Shown in pieces: positions 17,580 through 61,333 of a DNA stretch of 64,000 nucleotides (the first letter of the stretch is position 1; each line of letters opens with the position of its first letter). This DNA is from an uncultured Gemmatimonadota bacterium. Its GTDB lineage: Bacteria > JAAXHH01. The translations under genes and the position numbers were made by a program. A model generated the notes under the pieces. The model was not told where the DNA came from. It saw only the letters and a program-made list of their open reading frames with translations, and ran no database searches. The stretch lies in NCBI GenBank assembly GCA_951812955.1, contig OX638340.1:1120001-1184000 (forward strand), in the 5' to 3' direction.

Positions 17580-18287
17580 ATGAACAGGACGGCGGCCTAC
17601 ACGGTCCAGCGTGGCATACCCGTCTCGCAACTGGGCGTCGACGCGAGAGGGGCGTTTATCACGCGAACCTACACCCATCTTCTCGGGGCGATCCTGGCAT
17701 TCGCCCTGATTGAGATCTACCTGTTTCAGACCGGCATGGCGGAGTCGATCGCCCGCGTGCTGCTCAGCGGGTCCTGGCTCATCGTACTGGGCGGTTTCAT
17801 GATCCTGAGCTGGATTGCGACCCATCTCGCGCACAATGCGCAGACCAAGGGGGGTCAATACGGCGCGTTGGGGCTGTTCGTCGTGGGCGAAGCCATTATC
17901 TTCACGCCGCTGCTCTACCTTGCGGATTCCATGGCGCCCGGCGTGATCAACAGCGCCGCCACGGTTACGCTCATCGGGTTTCTCGGGCTGACGATCGTGG
18001 CCTTTCATACCCGCAAGGACTTTTCCTTCCTCGGCGGGCTGCTGCGGTGGGGGTTCATCTGCGCCCTCGTGCTGATCGTAGCCAGCGTGCTATTCGGATT
18101 TCATCTGGGAACGATCTTCACCGTGGCCATGATCGTACTGGCGGGCGGCGCGATCCTCTACGACACGTCGAACGTCCTGCATCACTATCCCGAAGACCGG
18201 CACGTGGGCGCGGCGCTTCAACTCTTCGCCTCCGTGGCGCTGTTGTTCTGGTACGTCCTGCAGTTCTTTCTGTCGTCGAGAGACTGA
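17580..18287 (+). CDS. Bax inhibitor-1/YccA family membrane protein
   Basis: [20 protein letters not shown] start, 7 TM segments, and a C-terminal DTSNVLH...[12 protein letters not shown] pattern. Confidence 0.85.
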
Positions 18288-18334: not shown

Positions 18335-19042
18335 ATGTTCAACCGAAAGAGTCTACACGCTGCGGTGTCCATCGGCCTGATGGCCCTGGTGCCGTCGCTG
18401 TTCACACTGGCCTGCGAGGGACCGGTTGGACCGACTGGACCGGCAGGAGCTCAGGGTCCGGCTGGACCGCAAGGCGCTGCCGGATCACAGGGACCGGTGG
18501 GCACGGACGGAAGTACTGGACTACAGGGGCCGGAAGGACCGCCTGGACCGCCTGGACCGCCTGGCGAGGTAAGAGTCATCGATCTGGACCTGGTCGGTTC
18601 GTGGCGATTCGAGAGCACGGATATCGTGCAGACCCTTGCGGAGAATCTCAAGGACTACCTGATCAACGAAGCCGGCCTCGATGCGGCTACCGTGGAACTC
18701 TTACTCGCCGAGTTCTTCAGGGAGATGACGGAGGATCTCAAGAACTCGCCGATTGCGACGGTTAACCTCGCCGCGGACGCCACCTTCCTGGACGGTGACG
18801 GCGCCTCGGGGACCTGGTCGGCCAACGGTTCGACGCTGCTTGTGAAACAGGACGAGACCGTTTTTTTCCTGGGAAGCTATCGCGTGGATGGCGACGATCT
18901 GACGCTGACGCTTTCCAAGGCCCAGATGCTGCAAATGATCACCAGCGCGTCGGAGGAACCACTCGCCGAAGACGAAATCATGCTGCTTGATATCCTGTTC
19001 GGCGAAAACGGTACGGCCAACTACTTCTTCAAGCGGGTTTGA
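18335..19042 (+). CDS. Lipoprotein with a collagen-like G-X-Y stalk and a lipocalin-like head domain
   Basis: ATG at 18335 (GGAGAGG upstream). Signal peptide and lipobox ...LFTLAC, followed at once by about 16 G-X-Y triplets ([19 protein letters not shown]...[11 protein letters not shown]), then LVGSWRF... (lipocalin_4-like GTWK start). Confidence 0.8.
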
Positions 19043-19051
19043 GAGGCACAG

Positions 19052-19651
19052 ATGCACGCCAAGTTGAAGACCATCGGCAGGGAAGCCATTTCTTTCGGAC
19101 TCATCGCGCTGGTTTTGCTGGCGGCCCGGTCGACCCTGGCCGATCACTATACCGTTCCGTCCGGTTCCATGGAATACACGCTACTGCCGGGCGACCGGAT
19201 CTTCGTGGCCAAGTACACCTTTGGTTTCCGCGTTCCTTTCACGGGATGGAAACTCACCGAGGGGCGCGGAGTGGAACGCGGTGAGGTGGTGGTGTTCGAT
19301 TCACCCGTGGAAGACATCCGCCTGGTGAAACGGATCGTCGCCGTGGGAGGCGACACCGTTTCCATCCGCAGCGGCCAGGTTTCCATCAACGGCGCTCCGA
19401 TGGGATCCGTTACGGATATGCGGGAGGAGTTCTACGGCGAACGCCGGGTCCGCCTGAACCTGAGCTACAGCGGGGGGGAGGACTACGGTCCGGAGATCAT
19501 TCCCCCTGGGTTTCTCCTGGCCATAGGAGACGCCAGGGGGAACAGCAAGGACGGACGGGCCTTCGGATTCATCGCGGAGGACTCGGTCTACGGCAGGGCC
19601 GTGGCCGTCTACTACCGCAGCGGCGAAGGCCTCTGCTGGCTCAAACTTTAG
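19052..19651 (+). CDS. lepB: Signal peptidase I
   Basis: VPSGSMEYTLLPGDRIFV (catalytic Ser box), VVVFDSP, LVKRIVAVGGDTV (Lys box), GDARGNSKDGR. Confidence 0.85.
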   Translation: MHAKLKTIGREAISFGLIALVLLAARSTLADHYTVPSGSMEYTLLPGDRIFVAKYTFGFRVPFTGWKLTEGRGVERGEVVVFDSPVEDIRLVKRIVAVGGDTVSIRSGQVSINGAPMGSVTDMREEFYGERRVRLNLSYSGGEDYGPEIIPPGFLLAIGDARGNSKDGRAFGFIAEDSVYGRAVAVYYRSGEGLCWLKL

Positions 19652-19676
19652 GGAAACGCGGACCTACCGCGTTTCC
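19652..19676. terminator. Hairpin between convergent genes (possible bidirectional terminator)
   Basis: GGAAACGCG-gacctac-CGCGTTTCC directly after the lepB stop. It overlaps the last codons of the M1 peptidase gene and has no clear U-tract. Confidence 0.3.
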
Positions 19677-22027
19677 GTCTTCGTATCCTGCGCTTCCTTT
19701 TCCTTTTCCTCCGCCCTATTCTGACGCTGCATAGGGTTCTCCGGCGCCTGGCGGCGCTGCTTGAACAGCTGGAAGCGCGTGGGCTTAGACTGCGGTGGCC
19801 ACACGTTGTTGCTCAGGTCCGTGTCCGCGGTCTCCAGGAAGGGATCGAGGGTGATCCTTTCCACCGGCTGATCCATGGCGAACACCTTGGTTACGCGGTC
19901 GTCGCGTAGCCGCCAGATCTCCGCGGGGATCCGCTGTACCTCCCTGGTACCGTCCTCGAATTCAAACTCCAGGATCACCGGCATGACCAGGCCGCCTACA
20001 TTCTCGAAGGTCAGTTCGTAGAAGTGCTTGCCGCTTTCGAGCAGGGCCAGGTCCTCGGCATCCAGGTTCTTCACGTAGTTTTCATACTCTTCCTGGTCGA
20101 GGATCGATACTTCGAAGGGATCGTACCTGTTATAGAAATCGACCAGGGTCGAATCCTGCCGGACCATGGGATTCGGAATATCGCCCTGGTTGCGCGTGTA
20201 GCTGATGCCCCGGTTTTCTTCCCCTCTGTTCGCCCTGGCGATCTCTTTCTCCACTTCCGGATCCCGCGTGTTGATCTGGAACCACTTCACCTCGCCCAAT
20301 CCGAGATCCACGTGGTCCGTGCTGTAAAACCAGCCGCGCCAGTACCAGTCCAGGTCCACGGCGGACGCGTCTTCCATGCTGCGGAAGAAATCTTCGGGCG
20401 AAGGATGCTTGAACATCCAGCGCTGGGAATAGCTGCGGAAGGCATGGTCGAATAGCTCCCGCCCCATGACCGTTTCCCGGAGGATGTTCAGCGCGGTGGC
20501 GGGTTTACCGTATGCATTGGGGCCGAGTTGAAATACGGATTCCGAATTCGTCATGATGGGCGAGATCCGCGCCACGTCACCCTTCATGTAATCCACGATC
20601 CGGTGGGCCGCGCCGCGGCGGGATGGATACTCGGTATCCCATTCCTGTTCGGCCAGGTACTGGAGAAAGGTGTTCAGTCCCTCGTCCATCCACGTCCACT
20701 GCCGTTCGTCCGAATTGACGATCATGGGGAAATAGTTGTGCCCGACTTCGTGAATGATCACGCTGATCATGCCGTACTTGGTCCGTTCGCTGTAGGTGCC
20801 GTCCTTTTCCGGCCGGCCGCCGTTGAAGCAGATCATCGGGTATTCCATGCCGATGCGGTTCGTGTGCACGGAGATGGCCGTGGGATAGGGATAGTAAAAG
20901 GTATATTTCGAATAGACGTCTATCGTATGGGCCACCACCTTGGTGGAATAGCGCTCCCAAAGGGGGTTGCCTTCCTTGGGATAGAAGGACATGGCCATCA
21001 CCTTCTGCAGACCTGACTGGACCTCCATGGCGTCCCAGATGAACTTGCGCGAACTGGCGAATGCGAAGTCCCGGACGTTGTCCCCGTGGAAGACCCAGGT
21101 CTTCTTCTCCGTGGCCCGTCCCTTTTCCGCCTCGACCGCTTCCGCCTCGGTGACGATCATGACGGGCTCGGCGGCGGTCCGCGACCGTTCAAACCGGGAC
21201 TGCTGCTCGGCCGTAAGCACGTCCTTCGGATTCTGAAGTACGCCCGTGGCCGTTACGATATGGTCGGCCGGTGCGGTTATGCTGACCTTGTAGTCACCAA
21301 AGGGCAGTGTGAATTCACCACGGCCGAGGAACTGCTTGTGCTGCCAGCCCTCCACCTCGTTGTAAACCGCCATGCGGGGAAAGAACTGGGCGATGGCGTA
21401 CAGGTAATTGTCATCTTCCTCGAAGTACTCGTAGCCCGAGCGACCGCCGATCTTCATCCGGTCGTTGATGTTGTACCACCACTTGACCTTGAAGGTGTAG
21501 GACTTGCCGGGCTGAAGCGGCTCGGGGATATCCACCCGCATCATCGTCTTGTTGATGGTGTGGGACAGCGGATTGTCCCGCCGATCCCGCACCCACTCGA
21601 TCTTGAAGCCGCCGTCGAAGTCGTTCAGCAGGCGCTGCAACTGGGCAAAACTCATCCGCCCCGAAACCCGGCTGCCCGCGATCTTCCGCGTGTCCGAATC
21701 CCGGGCGCGCACGTTCTGGTCGAGTTGCACCCAGAGGTAGGCCAGTTCGTCGGGCGAGTTGTTGTGGTAGGTGATGGTCTCGGTGCCATGCAGCCGCTGC
21801 GTCTCGTCGTCCAGCTCGATCCGCATCTCGTAGTCTGCCTCGTTCTGCCAGTACTGATGGCCCGGCGCGCCGGATGCGGTCCGGTATACGTTCGGCGTCG
21901 GGGCTTCCTGCTTGATCTGGCGGAACTTGCTTCGGTTGATCGTCTCGGGACCCTTCTGGGCGGTAGCGGTGGTGGTAGCGCACGCGACGGTCAACGCGCA
22001 TATAAAGTAAAATAGGCGCTTAGCCAT
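19664..22027 (-). CDS. Secreted M1-family zinc metallopeptidase (aminopeptidase N-like)
   Basis: Signal peptide MAKRLFYFICALTVACATT, GMEYP (GxMEN-like), and HEVGHNYFP...WMDEG (HExxH plus a distal Glu). Confidence 0.85.
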   Translation of the reverse strand: MAKRLFYFICALTVACATTTATAQKGPETINRSKFRQIKQEAPTPNVYRTASGAPGHQYWQNEADYEMRIELDDETQRLHGTETITYHNNSPDELAYLWVQLDQNVRARDSDTRKIAGSRVSGRMSFAQLQRLLNDFDGGFKIEWVRDRRDNPLSHTINKTMMRVDIPEPLQPGKSYTFKVKWWYNINDRMKIGGRSGYEYFEEDDNYLYAIAQFFPRMAVYNEVEGWQHKQFLGRGEFTLPFGDYKVSITAPADHIVTATGVLQNPKDVLTAEQQSRFERSRTAAEPVMIVTEAEAVEAEKGRATEKKTWVFHGDNVRDFAFASSRKFIWDAMEVQSGLQKVMAMSFYPKEGNPLWERYSTKVVAHTIDVYSKYTFYYPYPTAISVHTNRIGMEYPMICFNGGRPEKDGTYSERTKYGMISVIIHEVGHNYFPMIVNSDERQWTWMDEGLNTFLQYLAEQEWDTEYPSRRGAAHRIVDYMKGDVARISPIMTNSESVFQLGPNAYGKPATALNILRETVMGRELFDHAFRSYSQRWMFKHPSPEDFFRSMEDASAVDLDWYWRGWFYSTDHVDLGLGEVKWFQINTRDPEVEKEIARANRGEENRGISYTRNQGDIPNPMVRQDSTLVDFYNRYDPFEVSILDQEEYENYVKNLDAEDLALLESGKHFYELTFENVGGLVMPVILEFEFEDGTREVQRIPAEIWRLRDDRVTKVFAMDQPVERITLDPFLETADTDLSNNVWPPQSKPTRFQLFKQRRQAPENPMQRQNRAEEKEKEAQDTKTETR

Positions 22028-22295: not shown

Positions 22296-22832
22296 TTACC
22301 TCGAAAAATACATGATCATGACCTCTATGTCCTTCAGCATGATCCTCAACAGTTCCGCTTCCTCTTCGTCCTCCGCATCAAGACCCACGGTTGCCAGTAG
22401 CGAGGCTACTGCAAATTGCAGGGAAAGCGTAGTATCCGTAACGGTGTATCCCACGGAAAAAGTCTCACCATCTGAAGTCGTGACGGTTATTCGATTCCCA
22501 GACACCTGGTATCGGTCAGGCTGTTCGCCGTCGACAATCACCGTTCCGTCAGACCTGAAATCAAGGGTAAGGGCGAACGTCACGTTGGATTCTCCAAGCA
22601 TGTCAGATACCACCATGTCGGCCTGGCTCGCAGTCAGGCCCTCCCCGATCAGGTACTCCCGCAGGTTGGCGGCCAGTTTGGTATCGAAATCGTTTCCCGT
22701 ATATTTCCACGTGCCGATCAGCTTCTCTGCAGGGTCCGGGTCCGGTTCCGGTGTGGGAGTCGGGGCCATCGGATTATCGTCATCTCCGCAGGCTAGCGCC
22801 ACCAGGACGGTCATCATAAGTAGAATCCGCAT
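22296..22832 (-). CDS. Lipoprotein, lipocalin-like domain; paralog of the head domain of 18335..19042
   Basis: Lipobox LVALAC, Pro/Asp linker, then LIGTWKY...LAANLREYLIGEGL...YTVTDTTLSL...EDEEEAELLRIML, collinear with LVGSWRF...[15 protein letters not shown]...[12 protein letters not shown]...[18 protein letters not shown] is lower than the flanks. Confidence 0.7.
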   Translation of the reverse strand: MRILLMMTVLVALACGDDDNPMAPTPTPEPDPDPAEKLIGTWKYTGNDFDTKLAANLREYLIGEGLTASQADMVVSDMLGESNVTFALTLDFRSDGTVIVDGEQPDRYQVSGNRITVTTSDGETFSVGYTVTDTTLSLQFAVASLLATVGLDAEDEEEAELLRIMLKDIEVMIMYFSR

Positions 22833-22937
22833 ATCATGCCTCCTGCCGAGTAGGCTCGGCTATACGTGTCTTCAAGAATGGATCGGAGATGTTAACGGTG
22901 AGCTCTCCGTTTCGTCTATCAATACTTCGCTTGTGGT

Positions 22938-23246
22938 TCAAATAGATACCCTGATCGTGATGGTCTCCCTTATTGTCTCGTCGTACAGCAGGCTTTTTAT
23001 TCTGCCCTTCACCACATATCGCCCCAAATCGTTGAAACCGTGATTGAGTGACAACAGGGCCAACTTGTTGTGCTGGGCCGTTGCGACTACTCTTTGGGTT
23101 GGTTCACCAGTTGTCTGAACGATGGGGTTACTTTCCGAACAGGACGCAATCGCGAACAACATTGTAATCAGTAGGATAGACTGGAATGCACGCAAGTACA
23201 ATATACACACCCTTTCTGAAGAAGTTAGGGGCACCATTTGACCCAA
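22938..23246 (-). CDS. Hypothetical small lipoprotein
   Basis: Possible signal and lipobox ...LLITMLFAIASCSE. Low GC, no recognisable domain, weak call. Confidence 0.35.
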   Translation of the reverse strand: MGQMVPLTSSERVCILYLRAFQSILLITMLFAIASCSESNPIVQTTGEPTQRVVATAQHNKLALLSLNHGFNDLGRYVVKGRIKSLLYDETIRETITIRVSI

Positions 23247-23747
23247 TGCCTATGGTACCTGCCAGTGTTGTACGCTCGCGCTATAATTCGGTGAGTGTTA
23301 TACGATTCACCGGGGGTTGGGATCTAACTCGAAGCCCTAAAAATCGGCCACTGAATTGAGCAAACTACCCCGACCAATGTAGCACGAACAATCGACAATA
23401 GCGAGTGTCATGGTTTCAAATTGAAAATATGATCTATATTTGATTTTCCAACTGAAAACCAACTTGAAAATATAAACATCGGCTTCCAAGCTGATATTTT
23501 ATGATCAAAAAGTGATTTTTATAGTATTTAATGTGACTAAATCGCATACAACCGGATGGGTCGCCTGTGCCCTTACTTGAGGATACAAAGTCGCACAGAA
23601 GTCGGTGAAGCGGGACTCGTGGCATTTTCGGGCTATTCATCGGATATTGACAGGGACAATCCGCGGATGTACCCTGAATCGACCGCCGGTCCGGCACGGC
23701 CCGGCTCTTTCGCGGAAGAACCGCGGGAACCGTTCTCGGAAGAAACC

Positions 23748-24272
23748 ATGAAATCGCAGGGCTTCTGGCTTACCTTCGCAGGCCTCCTACTGGTGTGCGT
23801 AGCATCGGACGCGGTTGCGGTGCGAATATCGGCCCACCCGTTCTACATCAGCGTCTGCCAGGTCGATCACAACCCCGATTCCGACGCGCTGGAGCTGGCT
23901 TTTCGCATCTTTACGGACGACCTGGAACAGGCCCTCGAGGCGATGGGAACGGACCGGCTGCGCCTGGGGACGGAGCGCGAAGCCGAGAAAGCCGATCTTT
24001 ACATCGGCCGTTATCTCGCGCGCCACGTCGAAATCGAAATTAACGACCAACGCGTCAGCGCCGTCTTTCTTGGAAAGGAAGTGGATACGGACGCAATCTG
24101 GTGTTATCTGGAGGTTGAGAATATCCCGCTCTTAAACACGATGACCATGACGAACACCCTGCTCCTTGAAACTTTTGAAGACCAGGTCAATCTCGTGCAC
24201 GTCAACGCCAACGGTCAGAAGATGAGCCTGGTGTTCAACGGACAGCACGTCAAGCAGACGCTGGACTTCTGA
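23748..24272 (+). CDS. Conserved secreted hypothetical protein (resembles the H-P-F-Y-x-S family annotated as DUF6702)
   Basis: ATG at 23748 gives a signal peptide MKSQGFWLTFAGLLLVCVASDA, then SAHPFYISVCQVDHNPDSDALE. The upstream part of the track ORF has no protein-like features. Confidence 0.55.
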   Translation: MKSQGFWLTFAGLLLVCVASDAVAVRISAHPFYISVCQVDHNPDSDALELAFRIFTDDLEQALEAMGTDRLRLGTEREAEKADLYIGRYLARHVEIEINDQRVSAVFLGKEVDTDAIWCYLEVENIPLLNTMTMTNTLLLETFEDQVNLVHVNANGQKMSLVFNGQHVKQTLDF

Positions 24273-41837: not shown

Positions 41838-42980
41838 TCAGTTGTCGTGAGTGATCCGGTAAATCATTCCGGCGTAATCGTCTGATACGAGCAGGGATCC
41901 GTCCGGCATGACCTCCACGTCGGCCGGACGCCCGTATACCTCCTCGTCCTCGAGCCAGCCCGCGGCGAAGTCTTCGTACCCCACGGCCTCGTTGCCATCC
42001 AGGCGCACGAGGGTGATCCGGTACCCGATCTTGCTGTCCCGGTTCCAGGATCCGTGCTCTGCAATAAACACCTGGTGTCGATACTCGGACGGGAACATGC
42101 CGCCGGTGTAGAAACGCATACCCACCGCCGCGACGTGCGGGCCGAGTTCCTGCGCGGGCGCCACCATGGAATCAAGTGGACGTTTGCCGCCGAATTCGGG
42201 ATCCGGAACGCCGATGCCGTGGTGATAGGGGAAGCCGAAATGCTGACCTGATTCGGTCACGCGGTTCAACTCGTCCGCCGGAATTTCGTTCCCCATGAGG
42301 TCCCGCCCATTGTCGGTAAACCAGAGTTCGCCGGTCGCCGGATGCCAGTCGAAGCCCACGGTATTTCGCACGCCGCTCACATAGACTTCCAGGTCCGATC
42401 CGTCCGGGTTCATGCGCATGATGGTCGCATAACGCGGATCAGAGCGCTCGCAGACGTTGCACGGTGCGCCCACGGGAACGTACAGCTTGCCGTCGGGGCC
42501 GAAGCGGATGAACTTCCACCCGTGATGACGGTCGGACGGAAAACCCCCGTTGACCACGACGGGTTCCGGTGGATCTTCCAGGCGGTTTTCGATGTCGTCG
42601 TACCTTAGAACCCGGCTGACCTCGGCGACGTAGAGCGCTCCGTCACGGAACGCGACGCCGCTCGGCATCCTGAGCCCGCGGTCCAGGACGATCACCTCGT
42701 CGGCGGCGAAGTCCCCGTCCCGGTCCCGAACGGCGTAGACGTTCCCTGCGCGGCGGGAACCGACGAAGAGGGTGCCGCCGGGTCCCATGGCCATCGCCCG
42801 CGCATTTTGAACGCCCTGGGCGTAAACGGCGATCCTGAAGCCTTCGGGCAACCGGATACGGGACAGGAGCGGATCGGTTTCCGGGTTACCGGCTCCAGGC
42901 GCGGGCGTAGTTCCACACGCGGCGGCCATCAGGAAGACCGGCAGGAAGAGGCATGTTAAACAAAGGCGGATTGGGGTCAT
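41838..42980 (-). CDS. PQQ-dependent sugar (glucose/sorbosone) dehydrogenase family lipoprotein
   Basis: ATG at 42980 gives the lipobox signal ...FLMAAACG. Has HHGWKFIRFGPDGKLYV and NTVGFDWHPATGELWFTDNGRD propeller motifs. Confidence 0.8.
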   Translation of the reverse strand: MTPIRLCLTCLFLPVFLMAAACGTTPAPGAGNPETDPLLSRIRLPEGFRIAVYAQGVQNARAMAMGPGGTLFVGSRRAGNVYAVRDRDGDFAADEVIVLDRGLRMPSGVAFRDGALYVAEVSRVLRYDDIENRLEDPPEPVVVNGGFPSDRHHGWKFIRFGPDGKLYVPVGAPCNVCERSDPRYATIMRMNPDGSDLEVYVSGVRNTVGFDWHPATGELWFTDNGRDLMGNEIPADELNRVTESGQHFGFPYHHGIGVPDPEFGGKRPLDSMVAPAQELGPHVAAVGMRFYTGGMFPSEYRHQVFIAEHGSWNRDSKIGYRITLVRLDGNEAVGYEDFAAGWLEDEEVYGRPADVEVMPDGSLLVSDDYAGMIYRITHDN

Positions 42981-45763: not shown

Positions 45764-48700
45764 TCAGCGGCCGGAGCCGTGCAGGCGCATGGCTTCTCTG
45801 AAACCCTCCTGAGAGACCCACCGCGTATTGTAGGTGTCCCGGTATTTCTGATGATCAACACTGTTCGGGTAATGGGCTTCGAGACCGTAAGGGTATCGGT
45901 CCATGCCGCGGAAGGGCAGGGGTTCGATCGTCGCCGCTGTCGCCGTGTTCAGGTCGCCTTCCTTGAGCCACCCATCGGTATGCAGAACGAAGTCCCTTTT
46001 CCAGCCCGGCGGTGGTTCGGGAAGGTCATTCGCTTCGAAGGTCACTGCGATTTCCTCTCCCGAACTGTAGACGACGTAACGGCTGTCCGATTTCCGCAAC
46101 AGGGCCGTGACATCACCGTACCGCGTCCTGTATCCCTCGAACGGCAGCCACTGCGGTTCGGCGCTCAGCGTCTGGTAGTCTCTGACGAAAGGACCGAGGG
46201 GCGCCGTCCGGTATTCCCGTGAGTAGCCGCGGTAGTGAAGATCGGCGGACAACGGTTGCAACCGGGTGATCGTTCTTTCGACCCGTTCCGGCTCGTCCAC
46301 GGTGAAAAAGGCCTCGCTCCAGTACAACTCCAGGTTGGTGGTGAGCCTGACGCGGTAGTCATCGGCGGGGAAATGGCCCGTCAGATCGACGAATATGGTC
46401 TTGTGTTCCCCCGAAGGAAAACCGGTGTATGGAATAACGGTACGCCATTGCCCTGCGCGGTCCGGCGTTTCCAGGTACGGCGGTATCACGGCGGTGTTAT
46501 TTCGCTGGGACAGGGCCAGGTTGGAGCTGGGCTCCACGGGCATGATCCAGCCGCAAAGGTACAGGTGGATCCGTTCGGCCCCGCTCAGATCTCCCAAATC
46601 CAGCGTGATCGAATGCGTCTCGGGAACGCCCTGGAATTCCCCGAGTTCGAAGTCACCCACGTACAGGCTGTCCCGTGCCGCGAGACGGGGCAGGATGTCG
46701 TTTCCATTGTGGTCTCGGGCGGCCAAGGGCGGGCGCGGGTCGGTCACGGTGTGGATCTCCAGTCCCGGATAGGGCGGCGGGAGGTACTTTTCATCTACGT
46801 AGATGTCTGTCTCCGCCGGGTGATCGACGACCAGCAATTCCATTTTATCCATGTACACCGCGTCCCATAACTCTTCTACGACACGGACTTCGAACTTTCC
46901 GTCCCGCTCCCGCAGTTGGTCACCCCGGATCTTCACGTAGTCGTTGGCCGCATCCGGATAGGCCGGTGCGCCGGTTTCCGTCAGGGCGCCGATTGCACTG
47001 CGTGTCATCAAGTGCGTGACGAACTCGTACCGCGCGCCGTTCCAAGTGTACAGCGACGGACAGGAGCCCTTAAGCCGCTGGGGTTCTACGATCAGCATGC
47101 GGGACTCCGGATCGATCCGGTTCTGGGGTACGCCGTTGCTCCAGATGACCCGGATAACGTCCGCCTTTTCGCGGCTGCCGAGACCTGCGTGGGAAATGGG
47201 CCCGTCGACCAGCAATGCCTGATAATGTGCGCCGGCGTTGACTTCGATGGTGGATCCAATGCCGTAGAAATTGTTCTTCCCGCTTCCTTCCAACGCCGCG
47301 GCGAGCCGTATGTTGAGCCACCCGTTCGCATTGCCGCCGTCATTGCGGAGCGCGATGATCCGGCCTTCGGACAGCAGCACGAGATCGAGATCGCCGTCGC
47401 CGTCCAGGTCGCTCTTTTCTACGGCTTCGACGTTGCCGGGCAGTTCCGGCAACAAGGCCGCCTGTTCCTCGAACCGGCCGTTCCCCAGGTTTCTGACCAG
47501 CCGGAGTCCGGAGCGTTCCGGGACCGACGTCCCGGCAAGGACCAGGTCGATGAACCCGTCGTTGTCGAAGTCGACAGGCCGAACAACGGCGGGATCAAGG
47601 CCTTCGCAGGCTCCGCCCAGTATCGCGGGTGTGTCCTGCCCGGCGAACCGTACGCCGCCTTCATTCCAGAACAACCTGCATCCATCGATTCCGGATCCCG
47701 CCATGAACAGATCCAGCGCGCCGTCGTTGTTGAAATCGGCGGCCGCGACCATATGCGCCTTGCCCCACCCGATGTCGCCGAACCGGTCCGTCCAGTCCAA
47801 CCACCTGCCCTGCCGTACGTTTCGGTAGAGCCGGTGCGATTCATCTTCAAACAGCGCGACCACGTCCACGGCTCCGTCCCGGTCGAAGTCTCCCCAGGCG
47901 AGCGCCTGACCGGCCGAAGGGAGAAAATCGCCTTCTGCCGCCCCGGCGGGAACGCCGCCTGCCGCCTCTTCGAAACCCGTGGAGGCCGTGGCTTCTTCAA
48001 ACAGTCCGTCCTCCGTATGACGGTAGAACCGGAGCGTCCTCATGTCGGACACCAGGATGTCCAGGTCGCCGTCGTGGTCGAAATCCACTCGCGCAACGGA
48101 TACCGGTGAAGTCGATCCGGTCCATTCAAAGGACTGCGCGAGGACGTAGGTTCCGTCTCCTGCATTATGAAACACCCGCGACTGCCCCGATCCGGCGGCG
48201 AACAGGTCGGCGTCGCCGTCGTTGTCGAAGTCGCCCGTTGCCAGCCTGAAGTCGCCCGTTGCCGGCCCGATATCCGCATCCTCCCCTCCCCTGGCCCAGG
48301 GGATCGAAACCGATTCCCAACCTTCTACTCGGTTGCGCAGCACGACCAGCGCACCTGTACCCGCCAGCACCAGATCCGGGCGGCCGTCCCCGTCCACGTC
48401 CGGCAGCGCCAGGTCTGTCCACGTCCCCGGCGCTTGAAGCGATGCCCCGATCAACGCGTCACCCGCGTCCACGAACCGCATGTCGACGAGGGAGTCCGCG
48501 TCCATGACGGCGAGGCCGGGCGGTGCCGAACGGAAATTGTAGAGCGGTGGCGACTGCTGCGTTGGATCTCCCAGTCGATCCCGAGACCGGCGGTAGGACG
48601 GATCCACGACGAGCAGGTTGCCCAGGATCCCCGCGTTGAATTCGGCTTCGTCAGCGTCCCTACGTTTCAGCGCGTCAAGTGTCCTGTCGAGCCAGGTCCG

Positions 48701-49330
48701 TACATCGTCCGAAAGGGGGACGAGCAACGAGGCCATCCGATCATACCCTTCGACGGCCTCGACGATCCTGCCCATACGGACCAGGGTCTGGTTCAGCTCG
48801 ACGAGTAAGGCCAGGTTGTCCGGTTCGTACGCGAGCATCGCCCGCAACTCGTCCAGTGCATCTTCATCCCGGTGGGCCGGTCCCCGCTGCCTTCTCATTT
48901 CAGTTAGATACTTGTACCTGAGCACCACGTTGGACTCGTTGTGTCCGACCGCGTGCGCAAGCATGTCAAGGGCGCGTTCGCGGTCTCCCCTCGCAGCCGC
49001 GATATCGGACCGGATGGAAAGGACTTCCCCATCCTGCGGGGCGAGATCCGAGGCCCGGTCTATGGCCGCTTCGGCGTTCTCTAAATCCTGCAGTTTCAGC
49101 AGCGCAATGGCCATGTTCGCGTGACCGAGGGGTTCTCGGGGCACCAGCCGGACCAGCGTCTGGAAGGAACCTGCCGCGCCTTCCGGATCATTCCGGTAAA
49201 GATAGGCCAGGCCGGTGTTCTTCTCGGACAGGGCTTCCACCCATACGTCGCGGGAAGGGGATGTATCACCGCATCCCGCGAGCAGGAAAGCGGCCAGTGA
49301 GAACCCGAAAATGGCGGTTGATGTCCGCAT
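45764..49330 (-). CDS. Large lipoprotein with N-terminal TPR, FG-GAP/VCBS repeats and an ASPIC/UnbV domain (CRTAC1-like)
   Basis: ATG at 49330 (GAGGGA SD) gives MRTSTAIFGFSLAAFLLAGCG. Repeated D.D.DGD.D units (GDFDNDGDADLF, VDFDHDGDLDIL, ADFNNDGALDLF, DLDGDGDLDLV). ASPIC-like IGSTIEVNAGAHYQ...VIRVIWSNG. Confidence 0.8.
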   Translation of the reverse strand: MRTSTAIFGFSLAAFLLAGCGDTSPSRDVWVEALSEKNTGLAYLYRNDPEGAAGSFQTLVRLVPREPLGHANMAIALLKLQDLENAEAAIDRASDLAPQDGEVLSIRSDIAAARGDRERALDMLAHAVGHNESNVVLRYKYLTEMRRQRGPAHRDEDALDELRAMLAYEPDNLALLVELNQTLVRMGRIVEAVEGYDRMASLLVPLSDDVRTWLDRTLDALKRRDADEAEFNAGILGNLLVVDPSYRRSRDRLGDPTQQSPPLYNFRSAPPGLAVMDADSLVDMRFVDAGDALIGASLQAPGTWTDLALPDVDGDGRPDLVLAGTGALVVLRNRVEGWESVSIPWARGGEDADIGPATGDFRLATGDFDNDGDADLFAAGSGQSRVFHNAGDGTYVLAQSFEWTGSTSPVSVARVDFDHDGDLDILVSDMRTLRFYRHTEDGLFEEATASTGFEEAAGGVPAGAAEGDFLPSAGQALAWGDFDRDGAVDVVALFEDESHRLYRNVRQGRWLDWTDRFGDIGWGKAHMVAAADFNNDGALDLFMAGSGIDGCRLFWNEGGVRFAGQDTPAILGGACEGLDPAVVRPVDFDNDGFIDLVLAGTSVPERSGLRLVRNLGNGRFEEQAALLPELPGNVEAVEKSDLDGDGDLDLVLLSEGRIIALRNDGGNANGWLNIRLAAALEGSGKNNFYGIGSTIEVNAGAHYQALLVDGPISHAGLGSREKADVIRVIWSNGVPQNRIDPESRMLIVEPQRLKGSCPSLYTWNGARYEFVTHLMTRSAIGALTETGAPAYPDAANDYVKIRGDQLRERDGKFEVRVVEELWDAVYMDKMELLVVDHPAETDIYVDEKYLPPPYPGLEIHTVTDPRPPLAARDHNGNDILPRLAARDSLYVGDFELGEFQGVPETHSITLDLGDLSGAERIHLYLCGWIMPVEPSSNLALSQRNNTAVIPPYLETPDRAGQWRTVIPYTGFPSGEHKTIFVDLTGHFPADDYRVRLTTNLELYWSEAFFTVDEPERVERTITRLQPLSADLHYRGYSREYRTAPLGPFVRDYQTLSAEPQWLPFEGYRTRYGDVTALLRKSDSRYVVYSSGEEIAVTFEANDLPEPPPGWKRDFVLHTDGWLKEGDLNTATAATIEPLPFRGMDRYPYGLEAHYPNSVDHQKYRDTYNTRWVSQEGFREAMRLHGSGR

Positions 49331-55057: not shown

Positions 55058-57418
55058 TTACGCAAGATCGGGACCGGCCAGTCGGTAACCGACCCGAGGC
55101 TCGTTAGAGATGTACGTCGGGCTTCCCGCATCATCACCCAGTTTGGAGCGGAGTTTCTTCACGAAAGCATGCACAACCCGGTTGTCTTCGGAACTTCCGG
55201 ACCGCCATACGTTGCGCAACAAATAGTCGTAAGTCACGACGCGGCCGGCGTTGGTCGCAAGCACGCGTAGTAAATCGTATTCGGTTGCGGTCAGTTTCAA
55301 AGGTTCGTCCGCCAGGGTCACCCGTCGTTGCTCGAAGTCGATGACGAGATCAATCACCCGGTAGGGCTCGGGTGGACCGGCATGCCTGCGAAGCGCCGAC
55401 TGGATTCTGGCCACCAGTTCCGTAGGCGAATACGGCTTGACCACATAATCGGCTGCTCCGATCTCCAGAGCTTTGGCAATTGTCTCGTCTCTGCCATACG
55501 CGGACAGGAAGATAACCGGCTGATCAGCCATGGCCGGCACGCTTTGCATCAGTTCGATACCGTCCGCATCCGGGAGCAGCAAATCCAGTAGTACCAGATC
55601 CGGTTGACGTGATTTAATCAGACCGGGTACGTCATTGGGATTGCCGGTCACCAGCGCCTCGAAACTCGCGTCCTCGAGTATACCCCGTATCTGTTCCAAC
55701 ACCTGTGGGTCGTCATCCACCACAAGGACCAGCGGCTTCTGCCGATTTCCCGTGTCCGGGAGTCTTTGCCTCATGAAGGAGGGCAATTCGATCATGGCCG
55801 GCGCTTCATCCGCCACAGGTATCGTAAATGTAAAACGTGTGCCTAGACCGTTACCTTCGCTCTCGACCCAGATACGGCCGCCATGCGCCTCGACAAGTCC
55901 CTTGCAGATGGCCAGTCCGAGGCCCTCCCCAACCCCGCGTCCGCGATCTTCCCGTCCGCTTCGGGCAAACTTGCTAAAAATGTGCGGCAGACGCTCTGCG
56001 GGAATCCCTCGCCCTTCATCGACTACCGAAACCGCTACGAACAACCCCTCGCGTTGCGCAAGTACCTGTATGACTGACGATTCTGGCGCGTGGCGGGTAG
56101 CGTTGGACAACAGGTTGATCAGGACCTGAACTATGCGCTGCCGGTCCACCCGCACCCGAGGCAGATCAGTAGGCAGGTCAATACTGATCTGGATACGGCT
56201 CTCACTACTGAGAAACATATTCCGAGCCTGGTCCACAATGGCAGCCAGATCCGAGTACTCGGGGGATACCGACAGCGATCCCGTCTCGATATGAGCCGCG
56301 TCCAGCAGGTCGCTGATCAACTGTCTCATGTGATCGGCCTGGTCGTTGATTATGCGGAAAAGCTGCCGGGTCTCGGCCGGGTCCAGCACCGACGGGGTCT
56401 CTAGCACGGTGGCGGCACAGCCCTTTACAGAAGTCAAGGGAGCCCTGAGCTCGTGACTCACCAAGCTTAAAAACTCGGCCCGCATTCTTTCAAGTTCTTC
56501 TATCGGCGTCATATCCTGTAAGGTAACAACCAAGGACTCGACTTCTTCCTGCGGTGAACGTATAGGCGTTGCGTTGACCAGTATCGTGACCTTCCGGCCG
56601 TCCGGAACCTCAAGTACGATCTCTTCGGCGCGAACCGGTGTGGCCTCGTTCAACGCCTCAACCAATGCGGACTTCTCCAGGGCAATCGCACGCCCGTCGG
56701 TTCGCCGCGCACTCATCACGTCCAACAAATCCTCGGCGGTGTTTCCCGGTGTCATGAGATTGCCGACAATGCGTCGCGTCTCCTGGTTAAGGGATACCAA
56801 CTTGCCACTTTGGGCGTCAATTACCACTACACCAACCGGAGACGTGTCTATCAGGGCTTCCAGGTCGGCCCTGACCCGTCGCTCATCGCCGTGCCTGCGG
56901 GCGTTTGCGATCGCCGCCCCGGCCTGCGAAGCGAACAGCGACAGCATCCCTTCATCCTCACCCGTAAACCCCTGATCGGACACTTTTCCAACGAGACTGA
57001 ATATGCCAACATGCACGCCTTGATGCCGCATGGGCATGCCCAGGTAACAACCAGCCAGTACAGGGTCCGCCGGGAACCCTAACGAGGCAAGGTGAGTCGC
57101 TAGTTCCTTGAGCCTTAGTGGACGTTGGACCTGTCGAAAAAACTCCCACAGATCGTACCCAAAAGGTAGATCTGTCAGCCGCCTGTATTCTTCGGGGCTC
57201 ACGCCATATGTGACAAAATCCTGCAGGCTGCCCGTTGCATCCATTGTACAGATTGCGCCGTATTCCGCATTGGTCAACAAGCATGCGTTTTCCACGACCT
57301 CGTGCAAGACGGTTTTGATATCAAGGCTTTCGCTGATACGCACACTTGCCTGACTTAGACCTAAGAATCGCTCCTTGAGCGATTGTATCTCCGCTTGCAA
57401 CTCTTCGATTTTGGACAT
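55058..57418 (-). CDS. Cytoplasmic hybrid: GAF-PAS-HisKA-HATPase sensor kinase fused to a complete OmpR-type response regulator (REC plus winged helix)
   Basis: H-box FLSLVSHELRAPLTSV; G-boxes DEGRGIP and GLGLAICKGLVEAHGG; REC VLVVDDD...DLVLLDLLLPDADG...KP; C-terminal LTATEYDLLRVLATNAGRVVTYDYLL...VHAFVKKLRSKL...GYRL. No TM segment. Confidence 0.85.
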   Translation of the reverse strand: MSKIEELQAEIQSLKERFLGLSQASVRISESLDIKTVLHEVVENACLLTNAEYGAICTMDATGSLQDFVTYGVSPEEYRRLTDLPFGYDLWEFFRQVQRPLRLKELATHLASLGFPADPVLAGCYLGMPMRHQGVHVGIFSLVGKVSDQGFTGEDEGMLSLFASQAGAAIANARRHGDERRVRADLEALIDTSPVGVVVIDAQSGKLVSLNQETRRIVGNLMTPGNTAEDLLDVMSARRTDGRAIALEKSALVEALNEATPVRAEEIVLEVPDGRKVTILVNATPIRSPQEEVESLVVTLQDMTPIEELERMRAEFLSLVSHELRAPLTSVKGCAATVLETPSVLDPAETRQLFRIINDQADHMRQLISDLLDAAHIETGSLSVSPEYSDLAAIVDQARNMFLSSESRIQISIDLPTDLPRVRVDRQRIVQVLINLLSNATRHAPESSVIQVLAQREGLFVAVSVVDEGRGIPAERLPHIFSKFARSGREDRGRGVGEGLGLAICKGLVEAHGGRIWVESEGNGLGTRFTFTIPVADEAPAMIELPSFMRQRLPDTGNRQKPLVLVVDDDPQVLEQIRGILEDASFEALVTGNPNDVPGLIKSRQPDLVLLDLLLPDADGIELMQSVPAMADQPVIFLSAYGRDETIAKALEIGAADYVVKPYSPTELVARIQSALRRHAGPPEPYRVIDLVIDFEQRRVTLADEPLKLTATEYDLLRVLATNAGRVVTYDYLLRNVWRSGSSEDNRVVHAFVKKLRSKLGDDAGSPTYISNEPRVGYRLAGPDLA

Positions 57419-58091: not shown

Positions 58092-59147
58092 ATGAATCGT
58101 GTTCTAGTCGTGCATGCGCTGTCGTTGGTGATCGGTTGTGCGGGTGACCAGGGACCGATTGGCCCCGGGGGGGAACAAGGTCCATAGAGCCTTCAATGTT
58201 CAGAGGGACCGGTAGGGCCGCAGGGCACGCGGGGCGAGCAAGGGCCGCAGGGAATAGCCGGGCCGACCGACCCACAGGGCTCACAGGGTCCACAGGGGAC
58301 TGGCGCGCCGCTGAATTGGGCAGACGTGATCGAGGAGGGGAACCTCTACGACGCGGTCTATGTGGTCGGTGTCTAGACTGAGAGTTACTGGACCATTATC
58401 GGCACGGCTTTTGCAGCCTACTACGACGACAAGATGTGGACCAACGCCCACGTCGTAAAGCGTGCTATGGAGGAAGCGCAGAATAAGATTGGCGAAGTGC
58501 GAACATTCGTGGCGCGAGCAGGAGAGCGGTTTGTGGATGAAGGGCAAGGTCCGGGATTTATCTACTGGAACGGCGCTATCATCCACGAAGACTATGATGC
58601 TGAGCAGTATCCCCATGACAGCCCCGACGTCGCCCTGCTCCGCCTGGAGGAGAATGTTACTGGACCACTGCCCGAGCTCTTGCCGCGTGAATTCAGCCAG
58701 GACCTGCGCATAGGCCAGCCGCAGGGAATATTGGGATATCCAGGCGGGCTGGGACATTAAACCCTCGAGCTCGTATTGCTGACGTTCAAAGAAGGCACGC
58801 TGTCTGCGCTGCGGCCCTTCCTGAACGAGAGCTTTGACGGAACCAATACGGGGATGTTGCTGCACTACAATTTCCTTACAGAAGGCGGGACACGCGGGAG
58901 CCCCGTCTTCGATCACAACGGTTACATCGTAGGCATCAATTTCGCCGGTCTTGATAAAGAAATCGAGTTCGGAGAGGAACTCGTCACGATTGAAACGTCG
59001 CACCAATTCGGCATACACGTGGAGGCTCTTTGGCAAATGATCGACCAGGTTGGCGGAGCGCCGGCCGTCGCCGCGCGCGTTACGGTACCGGAAGGATCTT
59101 ACGAGCCATTTCCGGCCGGCTGGATTGGTGAGACTATCGCGCCCTAG
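58092..59147 (+). pseudogene. Decayed gene: lipoprotein signal, collagen-like stalk and trypsin-like serine protease domain
   Basis: A single reading frame from ATG 58092 is interrupted by in-frame TAG (58185), TAG (58374) and TAA (58758). MNRVLVVHALSLVIGCAGDQGPIGPGGEQGP*...[20 protein letters not shown]...; protease motifs WTNAHVV (His), DVALLRL (Asp), and GGTRGSPVF where GGxSGSPVF is expected (catalytic Ser to Arg). Confidence 0.7.
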
Positions 59148-59210
59148 GAATTACAATCCGGAATTGTCCCGAGTTTTTTCAACCAATTATCCACACGAAA
59201 GGAATGAACC

Positions 59211-59762
59211 ATGAGATCCGTCCTATTTATCGTTGCCATGCTGGTTTTCACAGCCTGCGAGGGCAAGGTAGGACCGGCTGGACCGGCTGGACCGGCTGGA
59301 TCAGCCGGTCCACAGGGTGTAAAGGGCGATACCGGGTCGCTGGGACCGAAGGGTGACAGTGGTGATCCTGGACCGGCAGGGCCGGCAGGGCCGGCAGGAC
59401 CGCAGGGGCCGGCAGGACCGCAGGGGCCGACAGGGCCGGCAGGACCGGAAGGCGGTGGTACCACGGAGCCGCCACCACCACCGCCGGAGCCGCCACCACC
59501 ACCGCCGCCACCGCCGCCACCGCCGCCACCGCCGGCCGGCGACGGAGCCTGCGTAGCCGGGTTGGTCGTGAATCCGGGTGAGAGTTGCGTTTACAATGGC
59601 TACGACTTTTCCGTTAGTTCCGAAGGCAGAGGGCGCATTGCCTTTTTCTCCGCGGGAAGCGGTATAGATGCAAGGGGTACCACGATCAACGGCGTACTTT
59701 GGAACTTCCATGCAACCCGAAACAGTGGCAGTAGCAGTTGGACCATTCATTCTGCTGATTGA
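59211..59762 (+). CDS. Lipoprotein with a collagen-like stalk, poly-proline linker and small Cys-containing C-terminal domain
   Basis: [16 protein letters not shown] lipobox, then about 21 G-X-Y triplets, [27 protein letters not shown], and a roughly 70-aa C-terminal domain with 2 Cys. Confidence 0.75.
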
Positions 59763-60263: not shown

Positions 60264-61333
60264 TGTAGTGCACTCCAAAATGGGACAAGTAGTTAAGCTA
60301 CAGGTTTAAACAGGTGGTTTCATTTGCTCGAACTCGACCGAAGGCGTGTAGCTTAAGGCGGGGTGCAAGCGTTTACGATTGTAGAGCTTGTAGATGAAGT
60401 AACCGATGCGTGATCGGGCTTCTTCGAGGGATTCGTACTCGTAGAGATAGCCCTCCTCGTATTTGAGCGTCCTGATGAAGCGCTCTGCTTTGGCGTTGTC
60501 ATAGGGGTTATCGCGCCGGCTCATGCTGATTCTAATACCGGCCTTTTTGTGGGTTTCGACATAGGCTTTGGAGGCGTACTACACGTCCCGGTCGGAGTGA
60601 TGTACCAAGCCCTTTGGTACCGATCTGGATGCCAGGGCGCTGTCCAAGGCATGAAGGGCAAGACCTGCATCGAGGGTTCGATTCAAAGCCCAGCCGATGC
60701 ATTTTCTGCTGCAGGCGTCAAGGACCACGGCCAGATAGATCCATTCGCCGGCCAGGCGGATGTAGGTGATTTCGGTCCCCCAGAGTTGATTGACTCCGAT
60801 TGTGTTCAGTTCCGGAACCAATTGGCGTAGAAGGCACGATCAGGGTTCGAGTCGGTGGTCGTTACGAAGACCTTGAGTCGCAGGGCAATCCGGTTGTCTT
60901 CGTACATGAGGCGCAGGACGCGCTTATGGTTTCAACAGGTAGAAAAGGCGTCTGAGTGTCCTAGTCAAAGAACGGTAGCCTTAGGAAGACCAGGTAAGGG
61001 AGAGCTTGTGTATCATGTCCCGCAGTTCAAGGGCCGGATCCATACGGCCTCAGAGACCGAGGTAGTAGCTGGATCGACCGATCGAGAGCGTCCTGCGAAT
61101 CCGGGTGACCACGAGACCGTCTACTGAGGGCGTAATTGGTGGCGCCACCTGTGAATCCGCTTGGGATGAACCTAGTGTTCCGCGGCTGACTGAATGATAG
61201 ATTTACCCGAATCGGCTTCCTAAAGGACTTGGAGCTTGAACTCACGGGTGAACAGACGGCGTTTCAGAGTCATGAAGCGCCTCCTCGATCGGTAGGAAGC
61301 TTAACTCTGTCTCCCAGTCAAGGGTGCGGTACG
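60264..61333 (-). mobile_element. Degenerate IS3-family insertion sequence with imperfect terminal inverted repeats of about 40 bp
   Basis: One end is 60264..60302, TGTAGTGCACTCCAAAATGGGACAAGTAGTTAAGCTACA. The other end, about 61293..61333 (...AGCTTAACTCTGTCTCCCAGTCAAGGGTGCGGTACGA), is its imperfect inverted copy. Transposase fragments lie between. At about 1.07 kb it is shorter than typical IS3 elements. Confidence 0.75.
60306..61273 (-). pseudogene. IS3-family transposase (orfA/orfB) inactivated by stops, a frameshift and a likely deletion
   Basis: orfA-like MTLKRRLFTREFKLQVL*EADSGKS... The DDE core NQLWGTEITYI...LDACSRKCIGW...HHSDRDV*YAS...MSRRDNPYDNAKAERF has an in-frame TAG at 60579-60581 where Q is expected, and a 1-nt frameshift near 60822. 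Confidence 0.8.

Follow-up and report, generated by a model that had tools for sequence, protein, structure and literature searches.

A predicted lipobox-Cys-Glu-collagen cassette precedes unrelated head domains in lipoproteins of an uncultured Gemmatimonadota bacterium and of other bacterial phyla

The window analysed here is a stretch of 64,000 nucleotides from an uncultured Gemmatimonadota bacterium (GenBank assembly GCA_951812955.1, contig OX638340.1, positions 1,120,001 to 1,184,000 of the forward strand), and the subject of this work is a small set of lipoprotein genes in which a lipobox cysteine is followed at once by a collagen-like tract of Gly-X-Y (G-X-Y) triplets. Three of them, here called genes A, B, and C, share this N-terminal design and continue into three different heads, while gene D carries a relative of the gene A head without a stalk (Table 1). 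A preliminary description of this DNA had placed the four genes at these positions, and open reading frame (ORF) listing and six-frame translation find them there; the common N-terminal design of A, B, and C is real, as is the stalkless lipocalin-like head of gene D behind a Pro/Asp linker. Its triplet counts were close, with about 16 noted for A and about 21 for C where we count 17 and 22. A regular-expression scan of all six frames of the window for at least five G-X-Y triplets returned just the tracts of these three genes with their shadows on the reverse strand and a single short Ser-rich run (63179..63232), and tracts as long as 17 and 22 triplets, conserved as they are in orthologues, far exceed what chance would produce.

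Table 1. Genes A to D, their parts, and the neighbours of gene A, with positions in the window
Feature	Position	Strand	Description
Gene A	18335..19042	+	235 amino acids: lipobox, Cys-Glu, 17 G-X-Y triplets, lipocalin-like head
Gene A, signal peptide	18335..18412	+	26 amino acids; n-region with R4/K5, uncharged h-region, lipobox F-T-L-A; PROSITE PS51257-type pattern
Gene A, Cys27 (predicted lipidated +1 residue) and Glu28	18413..18418	+	Cys-Glu-Gly in 27/27 family members with an N-terminus
Gene A, collagen-like stalk	18419..18571	+	17 unbroken G-X-Y triplets, 51 residues
Gene A, head and stop codon	18572..19042	+	156 amino acids, predicted lipocalin-like beta-barrel with inserted helices
Gene B	58092..59147	+	Pseudogene of a lipobox-collagen-trypsin-like lipoprotein
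Gene C	59211..59762	+	183 amino acids: lipobox, Cys-Glu, 22 triplets, Pro-rich linker, 75-amino-acid head
Gene C, signal peptide, Cys16, and Glu17	59211..59261	+	15-amino-acid signal peptide with lipobox V-F-T-A; PROSITE-style lipobox pattern
Gene C, collagen-like stalk	59262..59459	+	22 G-X-Y triplets, partly 9-bp and 27-bp tandem repeats
Gene C, Pro-rich linker	59460..59534	+	25 residues
Gene C, head	59535..59762	+	72-amino-acid all-beta domain with two Cys, not in Pfam
Gene D	22296..22832	-	Stalkless lipoprotein paralogue of the gene A head; lipobox VALA before Cys15
Bax1-I/YccA-type membrane protein	17580..18287	+	Pfam 1e-27; stop codon 47 nucleotides upstream of gene A; conserved neighbour
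Signal peptidase I (S26, LepB)	19052..19651	+	Pfam 7e-36; start codon 9 nucleotides past the gene A stop; conserved neighbour
M1 aminopeptidase	19664..22027	-	Between A and D; lipobox-like N-terminus LTVA before Cys (MAKRLFYFICALTVA, then C)

Proteins were counted as predicted lipoproteins if a positively charged n-region and an uncharged h-region lead into a lipobox of the form [LVI..][ASTVI..][GAS]-Cys with the Cys at position 15-35. A PROSITE PS51257-type signal of this kind is present in A (Cys27), B (Cys16), C (Cys16), and D (Cys15), and a search of the window for the lipobox pattern picked up three more plausible lipoproteins, with ordinary Pro/Thr/Asp tethers, besides A, C, D, and the M1 peptidase. 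The signal peptides thus fit the lipobox rule, as expected of the signal peptidase II substrates that the preliminary description took them to be, and no gene A family sequence that includes the N-terminus lacks the +1 Cys. The start codon of gene A is called identically in its closest relative (L001) and is common to all aligned orthologues. Both intact stalks score above the Pfam Collagen (PF01391) gathering threshold of 27.2 bits, with 34.3 bits (E 2e-8) for A and 33.9 bits for C.

Conservation of the stalk is most readily followed in the gene A family. A homologue search with the gene A head alone, in which the repeat could not drive the match list, returned 20 homologues down to 50% identity, nearly all of them with a Collagen domain; one named family member is annotated merely as "collagen-like protein [Gemmatimonadota bacterium]". 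In every full-length aligned orthologue the lipobox leads into Cys-Glu-Gly, and only gaps of whole triplets distinguish the stalks, so that the G-X-Y tract is kept down to 50% head identity, as the preliminary description would lead one to expect. Across the 27 family sequences that cover this region, Cys-Glu-Gly is invariant, Gly stands at every third stalk residue with no exception while X and Y vary freely, and the stalks are 36, 39, 42, 45, 48, or 51 residues long, all multiples of 3. Most of the gene A stalk is not simple-sequence DNA, with two repeats of about 30 bp within its 153 bp. As judged from these alignments, the stalk of gene A is under evolutionary constraint.

Gene B is a pseudogene. 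It starts with MNRVLVVHALSLVIG ahead of the lipobox Cys and continues as C-A-GDQGPIGPGGEQGP (also given, from the Cys onwards, as CAGDQGPIGPGGEQGP). The whole gene stays in one frame with no frameshift or indel; this frame contains stops at 58185-58187 (TAG), 58374-58376 (TAG), and 58758-58760 (TAA), and the G-X-Y run is interrupted. The halves of gene B match Pfam Trypsin_2, and the catalytic Ser has become Arg, with GGTSGS reading GGTRGS in B alone among 6 aligned sequences, while His and Asp are kept; gene B accordingly has neither the intact frame nor the complete His-Asp-Ser triad of an S1/Trypsin_2 peptidase. These findings bear out the earlier remark that the trypsin-like head has decayed, and the trimerised protease that had been predicted along with it cannot be made here, because gene B is a pseudogene that has lost its catalytic Ser. 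Intact relatives exist elsewhere: five proteins (L017, L087, L106, L048, and L050) from Gemmatimonadota/Longimicrobiales and unclassified metagenome-assembled genomes (MAGs), 37-41% identical to gene B, keep the catalytic Ser behind lipobox-CEG stalks of 11-19 triplets, with all five stalks in phase and their lengths differing by whole triplets only. We considered and rejected recoding or readthrough of the gene B stops, given the additional loss of the catalytic Ser, the broken G-X-Y phase, and the insertion sequence (IS) remnants close by. The decay resembles an early stage brought about by point mutation alone. At 60306..60830 on the minus strand, a short way downstream of B and C, the integrase core of an IS3-type transposase (rve, 1.8e-15; rve_3, 1.9e-10) is broken into two neighbouring fragments in separate ORFs, and this stretch has a G+C content of 0.50-0.58 versus about 0.61.

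For the head of gene C we found no fold neighbour in the Protein Data Bank (PDB), and a word-index search gave no candidate. The notion of an orphan head was rejected because an exhaustive search found at least 263 cluster representatives (P0028-P0177 listed) that are up to 80% identical. Elsewhere this domain is mostly a C-terminal module after CARDB, YWTD, PD40, PPC, or LRR regions, often the last domain of very large multidomain proteins and sometimes present in tandem with up to 5 copies; its consensus ends F.SAG..I..R..TINGV.WNF.A.K., and 13 of its carriers are lipoproteins. Gene C is the sole collagen-bearing protein in the best 150 of the 263 carriers of its head, and it is a lineage-specific fusion of a promiscuous domain to the lipobox-collagen cassette.

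The preliminary description had also suggested that heads were shuffled among such stalks. We aligned the 5' DNA of A, B, C, an A orthologue, and L025, a paralogue of A and D, and found that the conserved columns comprise only the start codon, scattered signal-peptide columns, the Cys codon, and GGN/CCN positions. The DNA of the A, B, and C stalks shows no similarity beyond that dictated by the GGN-CCN code, and their signal peptides are unrelated. Similarly, the stalks of gene C and L025 are alike in amino acids over a 10-letter stretch, a likeness that does not extend to DNA. There is no sign of recent DNA exchange or shuffling among the stalks within this window, and the modularity of these genes, which is real, is old or convergent.

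The same cassette is widespread beyond the window. We scanned one genome per GTDB species with a DNA pattern encoding C-E-G-x-[V/A]-G-P-x-G-P-x-G and obtained at least 119 loci, compared to about 9 expected by chance (our own estimate, for uniform base composition). Among the matches listed, 111 ORFs start 13-40 codons upstream, and in 96 of these a hydrophobic signal peptide leads into a lipobox directly before the Cys; several of the remaining 15 failed solely through a Gln at -2. The stalks of these 96 proteins have 4-49 triplets (median 9). Their hosts, again among the matches listed, are Bacteroidota (35), Myxococcota (21), Gemmatimonadota (11), and Chloroflexota (7), besides Ignavibacteriota, Rhodothermota/Balneolota, Spirochaetota, Zixibacteria, Fibrobacterota, Latescibacterota, Actinomycetota, and one Bacillota genome, so that at least 96 proteins with the cassette span about 11 bacterial phyla. 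The 73 complete heads fall into at least 27 clusters that are unrelated by BLAST. Pfam identifies MtrC/MtrF-like decahaem and other multihaem cytochromes, Trypsin_2, SBP_bac_5, SBP_bac_8, LRR, metallo-beta-lactamase (Lactamase_B), di-haem oxidoreductase (DHOR), CHRD, cytochrome c, and EB_dh/DOMON domains, and many small heads belong to no Pfam family. Further members with unrelated heads, which the preliminary description had anticipated, are thus numerous; its idea of a display scaffold that receives varied heads holds as far as modular reuse is concerned, but the scaffold is not peculiar to this organism. One contig of 3.84 Mb that carries a gene D orthologue (P0190) also encodes a CEGK-collagen lipoprotein with an unrelated head (L077), so that a further head type on such a stalk is present in a genome from the lineage of the window itself.

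The cassette has the consensus lipobox-C-E-G-P-x-G-P-x-G, with A, S, or G at -1 in 94 of the 96 proteins and positions -3 and -4 rich in L/V/I/F. Past the first four triplets of the 96 stalks, which are fixed by the search pattern, Pro makes up 31% of X but 12% of Y positions, and Q, T, and D are common at Y; a bias to Pro at X and Q/T/D at Y is the pattern reported for bacterial collagens. A second scan, in a metagenome sample, used C-x-GPxGPxGPxG and left the +2 residue unconstrained. It gave 127 in-frame matches, 27 of them after a lipobox, and Glu occupies +2 in 16/27 of these lipobox cases versus 5/100 of the others (p = 2e-9), which are mostly Cys-rich "CPGPxGP" collagens. From the sequences compared here, the cassette appears to be an ancient and widely reused module that precedes unrelated heads in Bacteroidota, Myxococcota, Gemmatimonadota, Chloroflexota, Ignavibacteriota, and others.

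Two groups of heads stand out in this collection. Ten proteins of about 680-790 amino acids from Myxococcota and other MAGs (L018, L038, L053, L067, L069, L075, L103, L114, L119, and L120) form one head group, each behind a lipobox-CEG collagen stalk of 6-17 triplets; L018, which was scanned as their representative, is an MtrC/MtrF-like decahaem cytochrome (Pfam 2.8e-50). Three proteins from Dehalococcoidia (L007, L020, and L029) are ABC-transporter solute-binding proteins (SBP_bac_5, SBP_bac_8) on stalks of 12-15 triplets plus a Pro/Thr-rich linker, an odd arrangement for proteins that need to dock onto a membrane permease.

The sequences themselves establish the architecture, its conservation and its breadth across phyla, the strict phase of Gly, stalk lengths that vary in whole triplets, the reuse of the cassette before many heads, and the preference for Glu at +2. 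Our favoured reading, which we regard as probable, is that a lipid-anchored collagen triple helix serves as spacer and trimeriser in a reused cassette. The products of A and C, and formerly that of B, would be exported by the Sec system as lipoproteins and cut by signal peptidase II, and Lgt/Lsp processing would make the Cys a lipidated N-terminus, so that the mature protein would consist of a lipidated Cys, a Glu, and then at once the G-X-Y tract. Three chains in one membrane leaflet might be kept parallel and in register by their lipid anchors and could wind into a short collagen triple helix of about 15 nm in A and about 19 nm in C (at 0.286 nm per residue, about 14.6 nm and about 18.9 nm if triple-helical, the latter extended by a polyproline rod). 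Such a helix would be a rigid spacer and a trimeriser for any globular head that follows it, be it the lipocalin-like barrel of A, the small two-Cys beta domain of C, or the trypsin-like peptidase of the intact B relatives. Lipidation, triple-helix formation, trimerisation, and the membrane face involved are all predicted features in this scheme.

Several observations weigh against this reading. In this genome only gene A is clearly under long-term selection; B is dead, and C is located in a decaying stretch beside IS remnants. Parts of the A and C stalks are 9-bp tandem repeats, so replication slippage could favour whole-triplet changes without selection. Many family members have just 4-8 triplets (median 9), and collagen tracts of this length without hydroxyproline would be marginally stable on their own. 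Several of the head types found on the cassette, such as solute-binding proteins, trypsin-like peptidases, and metallo-beta-lactamase, are usually monomers. In an AlphaFold2 (AF2) monomer model of gene A, the signal peptide and stalk have a predicted local distance difference test (pLDDT) score below 50, although a monomer prediction cannot judge the stalk. Finally, the GTDB scan required both Cys and Glu, and its breadth therefore says nothing on collagen stalks without a lipobox.

The short stalks, the tandem repeats (9 and 27 bp) within the A and C stalks, and the typically monomeric heads would also suit the main rival explanation, in which the stalk is a monomeric, extended tether resembling polyproline II, just another disordered Pro/Gly-rich linker whose Gly periodicity stems from 9-bp repeat expansion. 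Also in its favour, the window lipoproteins encoded by gene D, 41838..42980, and 45764..49330 seemingly do the same job with non-periodic Pro/Thr/Asp tethers, and in L020 and L007 the stalk is followed by an extra flexible Pro/Thr linker. However, a flexible linker needs no strict periodicity, and that of gene D (GDDDNPMAPTPTPEPDPDPAEK, which is rich in Pro, Asp, and Thr) has none, whereas the gene A family shows Gly at every third position in all 27 sequences and six lengths that are all multiples of three. The gene A stalk is moreover mostly non-repetitive, and the periodicity is kept in 96 proteins of about 11 phyla with very different X/Y composition. We therefore judge a monomeric tether to be unlikely, yet it is the alternative to be taken most seriously. 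It is far less probable that the resemblance of A, B, and C is a trivial convergence of two common elements, a lipobox and a collagen tract, whose juxtaposition means nothing for function beyond a surface protein that contains a repeat. Such a view can draw on the lack of DNA similarity among the three cassettes beyond the G-X-Y code and on their unrelated signal peptides, on the pseudogene status of B, and on the position of C as sole collagen bearer in the best 150 of 263 carriers of its head, but it leaves unexplained why the first Gly falls exactly one residue past the +2 neighbour of the Cys in the pattern C-E-G, why Glu is so strongly preferred at +2, why C-E-G is invariant in the gene A family, and why at least 96 cases face about 9 expected pattern matches. 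Least likely of all, and very improbable, is a Cys that escapes lipidation, with signal peptidase I cutting after Ala/Gly and the N-terminal Cys stapling a secreted collagen trimer by interchain disulfides, much as the Cys-rich N-termini of collectins and C1q do. In its favour, signal peptidase I would also accept the -3/-1 residues (T-L-A, F-T-A, V-I-G), a gene for this enzyme directly follows gene A, and disulfide knots are frequent in collagen trimers elsewhere. Here, however, the hydrophobic region reaches the Cys without a polar c-region, A/S/G at -1 in 94/96 is a lipobox pattern, and a single Cys in each chain does not suffice to knot three chains. Moreover, ordinary lipoboxes precede the same heads in D and its 39 orthologues and in 13 lipoprotein carriers of the C head, and both MtrC-type cytochromes and solute-binding proteins rank among the classical lipoproteins.

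The best-known bacterial collagen-like proteins are adhesins of pathogens that are LPXTG-anchored or reside in the exosporium, and lipoprotein tethers are usually treated as disordered spacers. The stalk described here belongs to the collagen-repeat class, and its predicted lipid-anchored design is an apparently undescribed form of bacterial collagen-like proteins; we found no description of a lipobox-collagen architecture in full-text literature searches, which do not reach most subscription-journal papers. Among the closest known systems are the streptococcal adhesins Scl1/Scl2 (SclA/SclB) and BclA. In Scl1/Scl2, a bacterial G-X-Y stalk free of hydroxyproline likewise presents a globular domain on the cell surface, but the anchor is a C-terminal LPXTG/sortase signal, the head is an N-terminal V-domain, and the stalk has about 50-80 or more triplets, whereas the proteins studied here have a predicted N-terminal lipid anchor, a C-terminal head, and stalks of 4-49 triplets. 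Neither A (ending ...NYFFKRV) nor C (ending ...WTIHSAD) has an LPXTG motif, and the sole NCBIfam matches, to Scl/Lcl models (NF038329, NF038330), arise from the stalk region and, at 28-46 bits, fall far short of the cut-offs of 325-400. BclA of the Bacillus anthracis exosporium has a short collagen stalk that varies by whole triplets and precedes a C-terminal globular head, and its structure (1wck) is a weak PDB sequence match to the gene C stalk; PDB sequence searches matched G-X-Y parts only. BclA differs in being attached to the exosporium basal layer by an N-terminal targeting peptide and in its C1q/TNF-like trimer head, to which the heads described here are unrelated.

Two further systems offer the nearest functional analogies. 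Braun's lipoprotein (Lpp) is comparable by analogy only, as an N-terminally lipidated chain that trimerises into a rigid envelope-spacer rod, but this rod is an alpha-helical coiled coil, headless and peptidoglycan-linked, with no relation in sequence or fold. The animal defence collagens (collectins, ficolins, and C1q) and collagen-tailed enzymes combine an N-terminal association point with a short collagen stalk and C-terminal recognition or enzyme heads presented as trimers, but these proteins are eukaryotic, hydroxylated, N-terminally disulfide-linked, and secreted rather than lipid-anchored. The one described predicted lipoprotein with a collagen-like region that we found is Burkholderia Bucl8 (PMC4565658, PMC7682875). 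Bucl8 is an OprM-like outer-membrane efflux channel with a (GAS)n region at its extracellular C-terminal end, far from the lipidated Cys (PMC4565658, PMC7682875), whereas the stalk studied here starts at +3, and Pfam detects no outer membrane efflux protein (OEP) domain in A, B, C, or D.

More tentatively, we propose that lipobox-Cys-Glu-(G-X-Y)n may be an unrecognised, phylum-spanning envelope module whose triple helix would trimerise enzymes, cytochromes including MtrC-like decahaem proteins, solute-binding proteins, and binders and keep them at a fixed distance of about 3-19 nm to the membrane. The module would be the collagen equivalent of Braun's lipoprotein and animal collectins, and its conserved +2 Glu might act as a sorting or helix-nucleation determinant. 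With a lipid-anchored collagen rod right after an acylated Cys, envelope proteins would be anchored and oligomerised in a new manner. Provided that the stalk does form a triple helix, the distance from head to membrane would be set in quantised steps of about 0.86 nm per triplet, and three lipid anchors and three heads would be brought together, which would alter views on how the extracellular electron-transfer cytochromes of Myxococcota, the solute-binding proteins of Dehalococcoidia, and the surface proteins of marine Flavobacteriaceae are positioned. Should the MtrC-like stalked cytochromes be surface-exposed, their stalk would set the reach of extracellular electron transfer. The strong +2 Glu preference offers a concrete and testable candidate for a sorting or nucleation signal, and experiments are feasible since cultured strains such as Eudoraea adriatica DSM 19308, Rhabdobacter roseus DSM 105074, Flagellimonas marina, Lutimonas halocynthiae, Sediminicola luteus, and Namhaeicola litoreus carry members of the family. 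Short, self-assembling collagen stalks without hydroxyproline would also be of interest for protein engineering.

The head of gene A is modelled with confidence by AF2 when an orthologue alignment is supplied (pLDDT about 80-90), and the heads of A and D are predicted to form the eight-stranded antiparallel beta-barrel of the lipocalin type. Pfam Lipocalin_4 (PF13648) stays below its cut-off of 22.4 bits for A (17.3), D (17.1), and L025 (20.8). The best structural neighbour of the gene A head is the peptidase-inhibitor lipoprotein potempin E (PotE, 8ehd), but Bacteroidota lipocalin-like lipoproteins and the Tannerella potempins (PotE) are only 11-18% identical to the A head and lack a collagen stalk. 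The location of the M1 aminopeptidase gene between the lipoprotein genes A and D would make a pairing of this enzyme with A as cognate inhibitor conceivable, although any inhibitor function of A or D is speculation by analogy.

Gene order around gene A (Cpn10, Bax1-I, A, signal peptidase I, and, on the minus strand, the M1 aminopeptidase and D) is identical in L001, L121, and the Tara scaffold L002, with a DNA identity to the window of 94.5% for L001 and about 78-88% for L121 and L002. An exact-sequence look-up of gene A in public assemblies gave no match. Judged by alignment and gene order, gene A belongs to the conserved core and keeps its synteny. Scans for promoters and terminators near A and near B/C gave results at chance level and hence reveal nothing on operon boundaries beyond the 47-nucleotide and 9-nucleotide gaps to the neighbours of gene A.

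The head of gene D is 25% identical to that of gene A (E 7e-8). Its 39 orthologues are all 172-183 amino acids long and without exception lack a Collagen domain (0/39), and gene D is syntenic in L001 and L002. The uniform lack of a stalk among D orthologues, together with its presence throughout the A family, implies that stalked and stalkless versions of this head have coexisted stably. L025 was tried as a further gene D orthologue and rejected, as it represents a third paralogue group that is 26-30% identical to both A and D and lies in another genomic context. Close to gene D, at 22868..23830, the window has just about 1 kb, low in GC and containing a small ORF that resembles a lipoprotein gene (22938..23195, minus strand), where L001 (14564..20552) has about 6 kb encoding a Big_2/LRR protein of 1640 amino acids. 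Big_2/LRR-like remnants that are 68-70% identical to this L001 gene are found in the window at 61451..62272.

The reverse strand of the collagen-coding DNA is open at 59144..59464 and 18451..18651 (both read on the minus strand) and reads as G-X-Y- or Pro-rich sequence, which makes it a trap for gene callers and motif scans. Upstream of gene B, at 55058..57418 on the minus strand, the window encodes a protein of 786 amino acids with GAF, PAS, HisKA/HATPase, receiver, and OmpR-type DNA-binding domains, which unites a sensor kinase and a response regulator in one chain.

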